A stretch of 10,594 nt of DNA, from the IMG/VR virus record IMGVR_UViG_3300028805_004235. One strand, written 5' to 3'. This document shows positions 1-2,828 of this stretch, piece by piece. The notes beneath the pieces were generated by a model. That model saw only the letters and a program-made list of their open reading frames with translations, was not told the origin of the DNA and did no database searches. The stretch's first letter is position 1; each line of letters opens with the position of its first letter. Made by a program: the position numbers and the translations under genes. This DNA comes from a virus.

Positions 1-2184
1 AAGAAGAGCCTGTAGGTCATTCTGAGCCTGAGCAGCCGCCATTTCAGCTTCTCTCTGTTTAGTACGAATATCTTCTTCATTCTGCAACTTTCGTTCCAGT
101 CTTGCCTGTTCAAGTTCAAGTTCAAAGAGAGCACTTTCATTTCTGATAGCAGCTTCTTCTTTTTCCTTTTCTGCAAGAGCAGTAGTAGCCTTTACACGAG
201 CGTCAGCATCAGAAAGTTCAATTTCTTTTCTAACAAGTTCATTCTGATAAAAATCAAGAGTTTTTGCAATAATCTGGTCTACGCTAATATCAAGAATATC
301 AACGTCATTAACAATCATACCATTATCTGTGAAAACTCTTCCAGGTTTATCTGTATCCTCAGTAATATCAAGAACAATATTTCTAATGATTTCTGTAGAA
401 TTGCCGTAGAAATCTTTAATATTGTATTTTCTGATTTCTCTCTTGACAAGAGTTCTCATATTATCACAAAGATATTTTACATAATTATTAATAGCAAACC
501 AAGAATCCTTAGAATCTTCAAGGAAACTTACACAATAATTAAGTTTAACTGATACAGCAACAGAGTCTGCGGTAACTGCATTGATAATATCTGTTACTCT
601 ATTGTTTTCAATCTGAAGGAAGGCAGTCTGGAAAGCAGGCTTAGGAGATTTAGGGGTTCCGCCAGAAAGTTCAATAGCTTCAACAGTCTCATCATAATCA
701 AGCAAACGAGTTGTAGGTCCGATTACAATTTCTCTATGACCAGCCTTAGACACAATATTTACTGCATAACCTGTCCAAATATCAAGCGCGACGACACCTT
801 CATATTTAGTATCAAGAGTAATAGTTCTAGGCTTAGTATAGCTTACTCCACGAGAAATATTTGCATTTGCTTCAAAAATTGCAAGTGTAGATTCCTGATT
901 TGCAGTAGAATATGCTGTATTAAGCATATCTGTGATTGCGGAAGATGTAGTAAGTCCCTTATGAGAAAGTTTTTCAACAGCCTGTTCAGTAAGACCATTA
1001 TTATATTTCAAAACTTCCATATTGCCAGGATACATCAATTCACATTCTTTTGCTGTTAGTTTTCTTTTAACAACAACTTCTGTGCGAGGGTCAGGTAGAT
1101 ACATCTGAGGACCACGTACTGTAGTAATTTCGCCAGTAAGTCTATTAAGGATATAACGGCCTTCGCCTTCAGGAATAGCAATTGCGTGATGCATATATTT
1201 ACCATCATACTGAATCATTGCATGCTCAGGACGAGGATAATAAATCATCTGGTCATTACCAGTAATAAACAGTTCTTCTCCAATAGGATGATGAATTGTT
1301 TTTCCATCTTTCTCTTCATCATATGCGGCAATTACTTTTACATAAATACCACTAATAGGAGAAAGTTCAAGAGCACGGAAAATAAGTCCACCCTTAGGAG
1401 CAGTTACGAATGTTTCTGTAGGTTCAGGAAATACCACGGCAGGGCCATGAATATATCTCTTTTCGCCATCTTCATCTTTAAGAATTGCATATTCAAGACG
1501 TTCAAGAGTAACAGCATCTCTTACATACTCTCCACTTCCTTCTCCATTCTCAGCACCAATAGGAAGAACTTCAATACCAGTTGGCGGAATGTAGAACGAT
1601 ACTTCCGTACCCTTAATTACAATCATCTGTCCAACGAAATACTCTTCGGACTCTGCGGTAATTTCTTTACCTTCTGCGTTTACAATGGTAGCGGTAGCCA
1701 TTCCCTTTTTAGCAGCGACCGCATCATAAACTCGTGCCAGAAGATACTGGTTGGAACGAAGTCTATGACCTCTGATTACCCTTGTCATCTGACCAGGATA
1801 AAGCGAGAAGGATGTGGGTCCCGCAATATTGATTTTTCTACCAACTTCAAGTGTAGGACTATTTACTGCTTTTGCAGGTTCAGGGTGACTGTTATCAGAA
1901 GTAGGATTCTTCAGAACAATGTACCAACCCTCAGGAGCAGACACAAAAAGCTGTCTTGCTTTTTCAAAGTCCTGTGTTTCTTCAAACTTTTTATTTTTAC
2001 CATTAAAAGTTACAAGAGATTCCTGAGCGGAAATGGTCATTGTCGTAGGTCCAGTATAAACCTTAATTGCGCCATTTGTTTTAGACTGAAGGAAACAGAA
2101 CTCATTCATAGAAAGAACAAGGTCACGAGACCGATTCATATTCATTTGGTTCTGATTATCCCATTCACTGTCATATCTTGCCAT
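1..2184 (-). CDS. Major vault protein (MVP) homolog, 3' end truncated by the window edge (728 codons in window). Standard code, no in-frame TAG, TAA or TGA.
   Basis: Reverse-complement translation from ATG (complement of 2182-2184), preceded by AAGGAG (complement of 2193-2198), runs open to position 1. Translation begins MARYDSEWDNQNQMNMNRSRDLVLSMNEFCFLQSKTNGAIKVYTGPTTMTISAQESL. Repeated ~50-aa units carry GP...(F/Y)(I/L)P.P.E motifs like MVP vault repeats: SFSLYPGQMTRVIRGHRL vs human PFPLYPGEVLEKDI, and VRGPQMYLPDPRTEVVVKRKL vs [24 protein letters not shown]. Shoulder-like segment IVIGPTTRLLDYDETVEAIELSGGTPKSPKPAFQTAFLQIENNRVTDIINAVTADSVAVSVKLNYCVSF vs human [68 protein letters not shown]. 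Also IKDFYGNSTEIIRNIVLD vs FDDFHKNSARIIRTAVFG. Ends with a Glu/Lys/Ala-rich coiled coil (ELELEQARLERKLQNEEDIRTKQREAEMAAAQAQNDLQALL) like the cap-helix. The comparison is from memory of the human MVP sequence, not a database search. Confidence 0.75.
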   Translation of the reverse strand, partial: MARYDSEWDNQNQMNMNRSRDLVLSMNEFCFLQSKTNGAIKVYTGPTTMTISAQESLVTFNGKNKKFEETQDFEKARQLFVSAPEGWYIVLKNPTSDNSHPEPAKAVNSPTLEVGRKINIAGPTSFSLYPGQMTRVIRGHRLRSNQYLLARVYDAVAAKKGMATATIVNAEGKEITAESEEYFVGQMIVIKGTEVSFYIPPTGIEVLPIGAENGEGSGEYVRDAVTLERLEYAILKDEDGEKRYIHGPAVVFPEPTETFVTAPKGGLIFRALELSPISGIYVKVIAAYDEEKDGKTIHHPIGEELFITGNDQMIYYPRPEHAMIQYDGKYMHHAIAIPEGEGRYILNRLTGEITTVRGPQMYLPDPRTEVVVKRKLTAKECELMYPGNMEVLKYNNGLTEQAVEKLSHKGLTTSSAITDMLNTAYSTANQESTLAIFEANANISRGVSYTKPRTITLDTKYEGVVALDIWTGYAVNIVSKAGHREIVIGPTTRLLDYDETVEAIELSGGTPKSPKPAFQTAFLQIENNRVTDIINAVTADSVAVSVKLNYCVSFLEDSKDSWFAINNYVKYLCDNMRTLVKREIRKYNIKDFYGNSTEIIRNIVLDITEDTDKPGRVFTDNGMIVNDVDILDISVDQIIAKTLDFYQNELVRKEIELSDADARVKATTALAEKEKEEAAIRNESALFELELEQARLERKLQNEEDIRTKQREAEMAAAQAQNDLQALL

Positions 2185-2225
2185 ATTTTTCTCCTTTTAT
2201 TTTTTAATATGTATTATATTTTTTA

Positions 2226-2828
2226 TTAATTTACGTTTTTAATTTTTTCTGCGAGGGCTTTAAGTTCTCTTTCTTTACGTTCTTTCTTTTTACGTGCCTT
2301 TTTTTCAGCTTGACGTTTACGAATGGCCGCGCGCTCTGTTTCCTCTTTTAGTTTTAATGCTTTTTCTTTCTCTTGCTTTTTAAATAACTGAATACCTTCT
2401 TTAGCTTTTTTATCCCAATATTTAATTAATCCCATATAATGAGCATATTTTTCAAAGCCTTCTCTTGTATACATTCCTTTAAAATATCTTTTTGCAAAAG
2501 CTAATAAGAAAGCATATCGTAAATCAAACATATCTTCGTCATGACAGATTGTTTTTACTTGAGTTCCATCTGAAAAAGTAAAACGCATAACTTTATTTGG
2601 AACTAACATTTCTACTTTTGTTAAATTAACAAGGATATTAGGATGATGTTTTTTAATAGTAAAGACATTAGGATAATATTCTTCAATAATATAATCAATA
2701 GAATCTTTAAAAGTAACATTTGGAATTGATATTCTATAAGGAATAAATGAAATTGAATGCTTATTAGCATCAGCATCAGCGTGCATTGGTGAAATTATAA
2801 AATTATTTTTTACTTGTGTATTTGTCAT
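2226..2828 (-). CDS. Hypothetical 200-aa protein with an extremely Lys/Arg/Glu-rich C-terminal helical tail. Standard code, TAA stop, upstream of and co-directional with the MVP homolog.
   Basis: Complete ORF in the provided track (MTNTQVKNNF...KKQEKEKALKLKEETERAAIRKRQAEKKARKKKERKERELKALAEKIKNVN). The start is preceded on the minus strand by AAGGAGA (complement of about 2836-2842). Only a 41-bp gap, containing the AAGGAG RBS, separates it from the MVP start. Confidence 0.75.
   Translation of the reverse strand: MTNTQVKNNFIISPMHADADANKHSISFIPYRISIPNVTFKDSIDYIIEEYYPNVFTIKKHHPNILVNLTKVEMLVPNKVMRFTFSDGTQVKTICHDEDMFDLRYAFLLAFAKRYFKGMYTREGFEKYAHYMGLIKYWDKKAKEGIQLFKKQEKEKALKLKEETERAAIRKRQAEKKARKKKERKERELKALAEKIKNVN

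Follow-up and report, generated by a model that had tools for sequence, protein, structure and literature searches.

The window analysed here, a stretch of 10,594 nucleotides from the IMG/VR virus record IMGVR_UViG_3300028805_004235, carries at positions 1 to 2184 of the minus strand a gene for a major vault protein (MVP) homolog that is markedly richer in G+C (GC) than the remainder of the stretch. The initial annotation ascribed this contrast to fairly recent horizontal acquisition from a higher-GC donor and offered codon optimisation of a highly expressed early shell protein as the alternative. MVP is probably an old, vertically inherited core gene of a phage family, with a GC excess that arises from the amino-acid make-up of the protein and from codon selection. 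Codon optimisation of a highly expressed protein is thus what the data support, with the words 'early' and 'shell' to be read conditionally.

Composition and codon usage of the vault protein gene

The compositional distinctness of MVP is confirmed by computation. The GC content is 0.379 at positions 1-2184 (0.373 at 1-2230) and 0.267 at 2231-10594; the contrast between 1-2184 and the rest gives a 2x2 chi-square of 103 (p = 3e-24). All other 2184-base segments have a mean GC of 0.267, a standard deviation of 0.013 and a maximum of 0.291. The earlier estimate of 40-48% for MVP was too high, having come from two atypical lines of 0.50 and 0.45, while the 60-base lines within the gene range from 0.25 to 0.50 with a mean of 0.38. 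The estimate of 25-30% for the other genes was correct: the adjacent gene of 200 amino acids (aa) stands at 0.277 and the plus-strand genes at 0.258-0.276. At the first, second and third codon positions (GC1, GC2 and GC3) the values are 0.534, 0.372 and 0.229 for MVP, compared with 0.35-0.41, 0.27-0.33 and 0.10-0.16 for the other genes of the window.

The codon preferences first proposed hold for some codons and not for others. CTT, CCT and GGT do mark MVP, and TTA, ATA and AAA do mark the remaining genes, whereas GAA (85% in MVP and 88% in the rest) and AAT (88% and 91%) fail to discriminate between them. CTT accounts for 78% of leucine codons in MVP and 17% in the rest, TTA for 0 and 72%, and CCT for 90 and 65% of proline codons; GGT falls from 44 to 34% and AAA rises from 64 to 87%. 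The same comparison yields 96 and 13% for CAG among glutamine codons, 0 and 35% for ATA among isoleucine codons, and 55 and 5% for TTC among phenylalanine codons. Altogether MVP avoids TTA, ATA, CAA, TCA, CCA and GGG and favours CTT, CAG, TTC, ATT/ATC, CCT and GGT/GGC. The difference in synonymous usage amounts to G = 356, with a maximum of 86 in 1000 permutations within amino acids. The shift is codon-specific and not a general rise in GC3: six of six C-ending codons of the two-fold pyrimidine boxes are more frequent in MVP, while GCC, GCG, CCG, GGG and AGG are less frequent than in the rest of the window.

Two components of similar size make up the GC excess. When the amino-acid sequence of MVP is given the synonymous usage of the other genes, its predicted GC is 0.324, and the difference of 0.111 divides into 0.057 from amino-acid composition and 0.054 from synonymous choice. 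MVP contains more Ala, Val, Glu, Arg, Met and Thr and fewer Asn, Ile, Phe, Tyr, Lys and Ser. The protein is strongly conserved; Ala, Val, Glu, Arg, Thr and Gly, which bring GC-rich first and second codon positions, are abundant in it, while Asn, Ile, Lys, Tyr and Phe are scarce, and the MVP family has this make-up in every genome examined. On the synonymous side, the effective number of codons (Nc) of MVP is 33.6, compared with 47.1 expected from its GC3. This deficit of 13.5 is the largest in the region, with an RNA ligase gene second and neighbouring genes at 5-7.

In compositional screens, highly expressed conserved genes of AT-rich genomes mimic 'alien' genes, and neither base composition nor codon bias is a reliable guide to transfer. 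Such genes display the same raised GC1 and GC2, an Nc below the GC3 expectation, a preference for C-ending codons in two-fold boxes and avoidance of ATA and TTA. Unlike them, the MVP of the window is viral, and its contrast is sharpened by a second codon regime of A-ending codons and sense TAG, which is served by phage tRNAs, at least in relatives. The principle that a codon-selected gene can mimic an alien gene is well known, and MVP is a new instance of it. Outliers in GC and codon usage are therefore not to be read as horizontal transfer, and MVP is a clean example.

Selection acting on the mRNA could generate a similar pattern if the avoidance of A/U-rich codons shielded a long, abundant transcript from AU-directed RNases or tuned its folding; higher GC would then be a side effect. 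The avoided codons are mostly A-ending and AT-rich (TTA, ATA, CAA, AAA and TCA), and the RNA-repair genes linked to MVP, for an RNA ligase, a kinase and a phosphoesterase, share part of the bias. However, AAT (88%), TAT (88%), GAA (85%), ATT (84%) and GAT (74%) are still dominant in MVP, and several G/C-ending codons are lowered. In two-fold pyrimidine boxes T consistently gives way to C, and ATA is avoided altogether; both are classic signatures of translational selection and point to decoding instead. An origin of the bias at the level of the mRNA is thus unlikely.

The long open reading frames (ORFs) on the opposite strand of MVP invite a different explanation, in which an overlapping antisense gene or a structured RNA constrains the sequence. 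These plus-strand ORFs, at 1186-2229, 736-1059 and, with TAG read through, 553-2229, are unusually long. They share the codon-aligned frame, however, in which each antisense stop is the reverse complement of a sense TTA, CTA or TCA, and MVP uses these codons 0, 3 and 1 times; because MVP avoids all three, the long antisense ORFs are shadow ORFs. Relatives in which TTA supplies 13-61% of leucine codons (loci L001 and L009) must break the frame, as every sense TTA reads as TAA on the antisense strand, the ORF translations are of low complexity, and no Rfam family matches. The probability of a second feature on this strand is close to negligible.

The gene across the phage family

MVP homologs of 41-100% identity were compared at 87 loci drawn from IMG/VR, contigs binned into metagenome-assembled genomes (MAGs), ENA contigs and two huge phages. 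MVP exceeds its flanking genes in GC at all 87 loci, by 0.061 on average (0.095 at GC1, 0.018 at GC2 and 0.071 at GC3), and ranks first or second in GC among genes of at least 300 aa at 70 of them. Its GC follows the genome in which the gene resides, as MVP GC correlates with flank GC (r = 0.85) and MVP GC3 with the resident genome (r = 0.86). The same locus recurs in relatives that are 76-100% identical, and MVP is present in every relative examined, with no patchiness in its distribution. Among the matches listed, the closest homologs (76-100% identity) belong to sibling phages that are equally AT-rich, with flanks of about 30% GC, and not to a higher-GC lineage.

The divergence of MVP resembles that of gyrase. 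When locus L001, the 97% relative, is compared with L016, L003 and L019 in turn, amino-acid identities of 0.94, 0.91 and 0.79 are obtained for MVP and of 0.95, 0.91 and 0.77 for gyrB. Identity at four-fold sites is 0.81, 0.71 and 0.42 for MVP and 0.76, 0.66 and 0.47 for gyrB. In these three comparisons the sequence divergence of MVP matches that of gyrA and gyrB of the same genomes, as co-divergence would predict.

A recent import that still carries the composition and codon usage of a higher-GC donor would explain why the GC of MVP is 11 points higher than elsewhere in the window, why the composition boundaries coincide with the ends of the gene, why its codon usage differs so strongly, and why the adjacent same-strand gene of 200 aa is AT-rich. 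It is contradicted by the GC elevation that tracks the resident genome in every relative, by the gyrase-like divergence at both amino-acid and four-fold sites, and by the codon-specific nature of the shift. The GC3 of MVP is merely 0.23, and donor-typical GCC, GCG, CCG, GGG and AGG are the codons that it uses less than the rest of the window. No mobility genes accompany it, and in relatives the small ORFs that separate MVP from the RNA ligase gene (0.34-0.39) return to a GC of 0.25-0.26, which leaves no contiguous island. Recent acquisition is highly improbable. Neither do all early genes form blocks of 40% GC or more: the other TAG-free genes of close relatives lie at 0.28-0.33, with only the RNA ligase gene at 0.34-0.39. 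Over a further 10 kb along a 142-kb relative, no other high-GC gene was found save an ORF of 104 aa at 0.369.

An older transfer, into the ancestor of the phage family and followed by incomplete amelioration, would leave the GC excess as a fading donor signal. MVP-like proteins exist in bacteria (10.1101/2023.11.10.566534), making a cellular origin possible, and the GC excess is common to the whole clade. At protein identities of 79% or less, though, the fraction of conserved residues with the same codon is 0.60, compared with 0.56 by chance; identity so near chance means that synonymous sites are saturated between lineages. Saturation would erase a donor signal, yet codon-specific preferences persist, with CAG at 0.8-1.0, ATA at about 0 and raised TTC and AAG recurring across lineages that are 55-97% identical. 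MVP GC3 also follows the resident genome, and in some lineages it is at or below background while GC1 is still high, a combination that indicates protein constraint and selection and not a fading donor signal. A synonymous bias that faded monotonically as clades age, and evenly over all codon families, would favour such a transfer, but the data show the opposite. Ancient acquisition with a surviving imprint is therefore very unlikely.

GC-biased gene conversion could raise the GC of MVP, as could frequent recombination if co-infecting phages exchanged this highly conserved gene. MVP is far more conserved than the neighbouring tail genes (96% compared with 29-62% for the adjacent tail genes relative to L016) and would be a good substrate for recombination. 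Gene conversion would, however, lift all G/C-ending codons, whereas the shift in MVP is codon-specific and some G/C-ending codons are depleted, and the gyrase genes are equally conserved yet reach a GC of only 0.31-0.33. We regard this explanation as extremely doubtful.

The two huge phages, of 462 and 735 kb, carry MVP homologs of 42-43% identity at L012 (LR756500.1, 11992-14475) and L013 (LR756501.1, 11995-14424). In these, GC1 of MVP is raised but synonymous codons show no bias (GC3 is 0.09 against a background of 24% GC), so the strong codon bias belongs specifically to the clade of roughly 120-200-kb phages.

Identity of the vault protein and its phage family

From its sequence, the gene product is clearly a homolog of the major vault protein. 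Pfam detects MVP_shoulder (PF11978; 1.5e-21, 77.1 bits with a cutoff of 25) at residues 527-635 and one Vault_3 repeat (PF17795; 31.5 bits with a cutoff of 28.8) at 485-515, as well as Band_7; it recognises no repeats further towards the N terminus by sequence. In a phmmer comparison with the solved rat and human MVP chains, residues 327-787 of a full-length relative align to 330-813 (E = 6e-16). The copy in the window comprises 728 of about 832 codons and stops within a helix-like segment rich in Ala, Glu, Lys and Gln. Full-length relatives have 823-835 aa and align to the MVP chains up to residue 813, in keeping with the cap-helix and the length of the vault protein.

Homologs of the gene are abundant in metagenomes. 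More than 6000 are found among public metagenome proteins, at 823-835 aa and on contigs of up to 178 kb, and the best 120 of these are 76-97% identical; in IMG/VR, 217 loci are confirmed. PHROGs holds no family for MVP, tblastn in phage records finds only three huge-phage records at 42-43% identity, and a megablast search with the entire window returns no match among 50,697 phage records. The flanks of the homologs consist of phage genes for tail and tape measure proteins, RNA ligase, kinase, phosphoesterase, holin, GH25/CHAP endolysin and gyrase. Record names place the clade mostly in rumen or animal gut samples, and the MAG bin labels of relatives read Bacilli, Erysipelotrichaceae, Clostridium and Eubacteriales, although such labels are unreliable for phage contigs. 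The family comprises uncultured tailed phages of roughly 120-200 kb that probably infect Gram-positive Clostridia or Bacilli of animal guts.

Phage MVP homologs were first reported in 2023, with about 23% identity to human MVP and no reported vPARP or TEP1 partners (10.1101/2023.11.10.566534). The gut Caudoviricetes ctOa11 and ct2Ri15 of that report, compared here by description, encode the same protein family at about 810-830 aa with the MVP shoulder, and are likewise large uncultured gut phages related to phages of Bacillota; for ctOa11, TAG-recoded ORFs and a suppressor tRNA are described as well (PMC10607447). Composition, codon bias, conservation and genetic-code context are not treated in the 2023 report. 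The eukaryotic protein, which forms the rat and human vault shell (PDB 4V60, 7PKZ), is similar in length and shares homology over the repeats, shoulder and cap-helix. It is nevertheless distant, with an alignment limited to residues 327-787, and the MVP of the window is encoded by a virus of bacteria.

Expression context and proposed translation regimes

The start of MVP is complete, with its ATG at 2184-2182 of the minus strand, and its 3' end is cut by the window edge. A strong predicted Shine-Dalgarno site, AAGGAG, is read at 2191-2196 of the same strand, 6 nt 5' of the start codon, and relatives keep it as AAGGAG or AAGGTA. Further upstream, at 2213-2242 of the minus strand, lies a candidate sigma-70-like promoter, TTAAAA-18 nt-TATAAT, with 10 of 12 consensus matches. 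Its -35 part, which is weaker in the subgroup of the window, extends into the end of the 200-aa gene. Where the upstream gene differs (L003, L019, L021, L023, L026 and L029), a better TTGATT/TTGAAA-17-TATAAT element occupies the same place, at about positions 9930-10000 of those loci and directly upstream of MVP.

Codon usage in the subclade of the window differs among three classes of genes. GC3 is 0.153 in TAG-containing genes, 0.198 in other TAG-free genes and 0.237 in MVP. In the same order, TTA supplies 0.71, 0.34 and 0.07 of leucine codons, CAG 0.14, 0.32 and 0.90 of glutamine codons, and ATA 0.30, 0.20 and 0.00 of isoleucine codons. The four plus-strand genes of the window together contain at least 44 in-frame TAGs, and MVP and the 200-aa gene contain none. 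In relatives, in-frame TAG is confined to structural and lysis genes, while MVP, RNA ligase and gyrase genes are TAG-free; MVP has no in-frame TAG at 82 of the 87 loci.

The tRNA arrays of relatives consist mostly of U34 anticodons, which read A-ending codons such as TTA, CAA, AAA, GGA, ATA and TCA, together with CUA suppressors. Codons cognate to phage tRNAs were counted at 18 loci with tRNA genes, 16 of which also have TAG-containing genes in the fetched flanks. Such codons are fewer in MVP than in TAG-containing genes in 14 of the 16 relatives, and their mean share is 0.21 in MVP, 0.35 in other TAG-free genes and 0.51 in TAG-containing genes.

These contrasts suggest how the composition of MVP may have come about. 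The narrow codon set would suit very high translation, of the kind expected if MVP were made in bulk as a many-subunit cage like a vault. The eukaryotic vault needs 78 MVP copies (PMC11203631), and a vault-like cage of this sort would explain the need for high output. MVP would be transcribed from a host-type promoter and decoded by host tRNAs under the standard code, either ahead of the phage tRNAs and the TAG suppressor or without recourse to them, whereas the AT-rich, TAG-containing late genes would depend on them. The standard-code regime would serve proteins needed in bulk before the phage reprogrammes translation, namely MVP and, in relatives, the RNA ligase and a flotillin-like protein. 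Whether the composition break at 2184/2226 is the border of two translation regimes, one host-tuned with the standard code and the other AT-rich and late with TAG as glutamate, is in our judgement evenly balanced. Phage MVP homologs are core genes conserved like gyrase, free of TAG and with the strongest codon bias among the genes examined in the fetched loci, properties which suggest that the protein is produced abundantly at an early stage of infection.

Several observations weigh against the view of MVP as an ancestral gene shaped by selection for high, early expression. The GC3 excess is absent in L034, L036, L039 and L012, and the synonymous component is accordingly not universal. The Karlin dinucleotide-signature distance of MVP, 158, is the highest among window genes longer than 1 kb; in the 22-kb loci the distance is 103-120, like that of endolysin and tail genes, and not exceptional. 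Promoter-like sites are no more numerous in the window than in shuffles by consensus scan. In the L042/L103/L176 genome, with 18 phage tRNAs, the share of phage-tRNA-cognate codons shows no difference between classes (0.43 in MVP, 0.45 in TAG-free and 0.46 in TAG-containing genes), and the codon bias of MVP is weak in that lineage. Because the class difference vanishes with the fullest tRNA set, the model of host-tRNA and phage-tRNA regimes is only suggestive. Finally, we infer 'highly expressed' and 'early' from the bias in codon usage, the absence of TAG and a motif that resembles a promoter.

The surroundings of MVP in relatives offer further observations. L176, a locus of a 133-kb relative with an MVP of 60% identity, carries 20 tRNA genes in less than 9 kb (10419-19036), including Ile-UAU, Leu-UAA, two tRNA-Glu and a CUA suppressor, and several other relatives have arrays of 5-16 tRNAs just upstream of MVP. 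An RNA-repair-like cassette is consistently linked to MVP and encodes an RNA ligase with a PHA02142 OB fold, a KTI12/AAA_33 kinase and a metallophosphoesterase (L001:13198-15732; L003:9122-9946 and 13222-15343; L016:13018-15359). In L003 a Thg1-like gene stands directly upstream of MVP. Among the neighbours of MVP, only the RNA ligase gene likewise combines raised GC (0.34-0.39) with a large Nc deficit.

More distant relatives encode a flotillin-like SPFH/Band-7 protein of 510-515 aa a few kb upstream of MVP (L008:1942-3474; L011:4967-6514). Its gene shares the MVP pattern, with a GC of 0.43-0.48, CAG at 0.7-0.9, ATA at 0 and TTC at 0.6-0.7. Two proteins of the SPFH superfamily thus bear what may be a signature of bulk expression.

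Gene layout of the window

The remainder of the window contains one further minus-strand gene and a plus-strand tail module. The 200-aa gene, listed as an ORF at 2226-2828 on the minus strand upstream of MVP, has no assigned function, and its product matches nothing in Pfam or PHROGs. Its composition is AT-rich and 'native' (GC 0.277, TTA at 67% of leucine codons and 0 in-frame TAG). Orthologs of this gene are merely 57-77% identical where MVP is 96-97% identical. A divergent intergenic region at 2829-2988, with a GC of 0.16, separates the minus-strand genes from the plus-strand tail genes and contains a promoter-like TTGACC-17-TATAAT at 2891-2863 on the minus strand, with 11 of 12 matches.

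Four TAG-recoded genes follow on the plus strand, and they stay open only with TAG as a sense codon, a recoding that the initial annotation missed. The first, a structural gene of the tail module at 2989-5913, has 974 codons, 13 in-frame TAGs and a GC of 0.258 and matches PHROG 30026. The second, a tail gene at 5877-8036, has 719 codons, 20 in-frame TAGs and a GC of 0.276 and matches PHROG 32343 (1.4e-39) and PHROG 1887, 'tail protein'. The third, at 8051-8782, has 243 codons, 4 in-frame TAGs and a GC of 0.268. The fourth, a tail-fibre-like gene at 8789-10594 with at least 7 in-frame TAGs, extends beyond the window edge. Its reading frame is broken by a 1-nt change in an A run near 8965-8968 (region 8954-8975), where the window reads GGAAAATTTTT and L001, which has one ORF of 844 aa, reads GGAAAAATTTTT; the change is either an assembly error or a genuine frameshift. 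Scans of the window for tRNA genes, and for Rfam families at gathering thresholds, found none.

The meaning of TAG

We think that the lineage of the window reads TAG as glutamate and not as glutamine, a view based on alignments of recoded genes with their orthologs, on one invariant motif and on the suppressor tRNAs. Examples of TAG codons in the window lie on the plus strand at 3073, 3742, 3841, 5374, 6036, 6474, 6744, 7473, 7590 and 8651. The residues aligned to the TAGs of the window tail genes are E in 47%, D in 16% and Q in 7% of cases (n = 75). A TAG profile over 1710 unique ORFs from all loci is ambiguous between Q and E when pooled and resolves only when split by locus. In group 1, which comprises the window, its close relatives and many gyrA-linked loci, TAG aligns with E at 0.30-0.55 and with Q at 0.04-0.13. 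In group 2, it aligns with Q at 0.30-0.67 and with E at 0.20 or less.

Restriction to conserved columns sharpens the division. E occupies the TAG column in 55 of 58 cases in group 1 (39 of 41, in 24 proteins, after dereplication), and Q does so in 34 of 42 cases in group 2 (28 of 34 after dereplication). Genuine Glu and Gln codons, used as controls, give the expected outcome in this test. The [ST]EAQN motif of a PhoH-like ATPase illustrates both: L162 (2380-3624) has T-TAG-AQN, with TAG at the Walker-B Glu of ILDEAQN (PDB 3B85), while L051, L055, L059, L086 and L167 have SEA-TAG-N or TEA-TAG-N. PDB alignments of the GH25 endolysin are uninformative for TAG, as the columns concerned vary, and the ThyX-like protein has no PDB match.

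The suppressor tRNAs differ along similar lines. The only one found in a group 1 genome, L176:18865-18941, shares G1.U72, G2-C71, C3-G70, U4.G69, C5-G68 and A73 with the tRNA-Glu(UUC) of its own genome. Five suppressors of group 2, or of lineages nearer to group 2, have a mismatched 1-72 pair and G73. G73 is present in four of four phage tRNA-Gln examined, most of which have U1-A72 or A1-U72 as the first pair. Scans detected no tRNA gene in the window, nor in the 10-20 kb around MVP or gyrA of its closest relatives, so the suppressor belonging to this subclade was not recovered. Otherwise, TAG is not known to mean glutamate except in peritrich ciliates (NCBI table 30). In hosts without glutaminyl-tRNA synthetase, a non-discriminating glutamyl-tRNA synthetase could charge a CUA tRNA that has the acceptor features of tRNA-Glu, and GatCAB would not convert the Glu on that tRNA to Gln.

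In the papers searched (including PMC10607447), TAG in phages is described as Gln, and TAG as Glu would be a code variant that they do not describe for phages. Phages of code 15 (10.1101/2021.08.26.457843; the Phassvirus group in PMC10607447) have standard-code early genes and recoded late genes, a split that the distribution of TAG here matches. Both they and the relatives studied here have large tRNA arrays, CUA suppressors and genomes of about 135-145 kb, and a related group of TAG-recoded gut phages of about 136 kb has 28-36 tRNA genes (PMC10607447). The two differ in that TAG is Gln in code 15 phages, whereas it aligns with Glu in the lineage of the window. Should TAG mean Glu here and Gln in a sister lineage, this would bear on gene calling and protein prediction for a large group of gut and rumen phages, and the pair would be a natural system for studying how the identity of a suppressor tRNA sets the meaning of a reassigned stop codon.

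Two ORFs stand out by a very high TAG density. L148:15176-16132 and L129:6991-8025 carry 21 in-frame TAGs per 319-344 codons, about 6% of codons and far above the 1-3% of tail genes, and one of them has a GIY-YIG-like C-terminal motif, recognised by eye.

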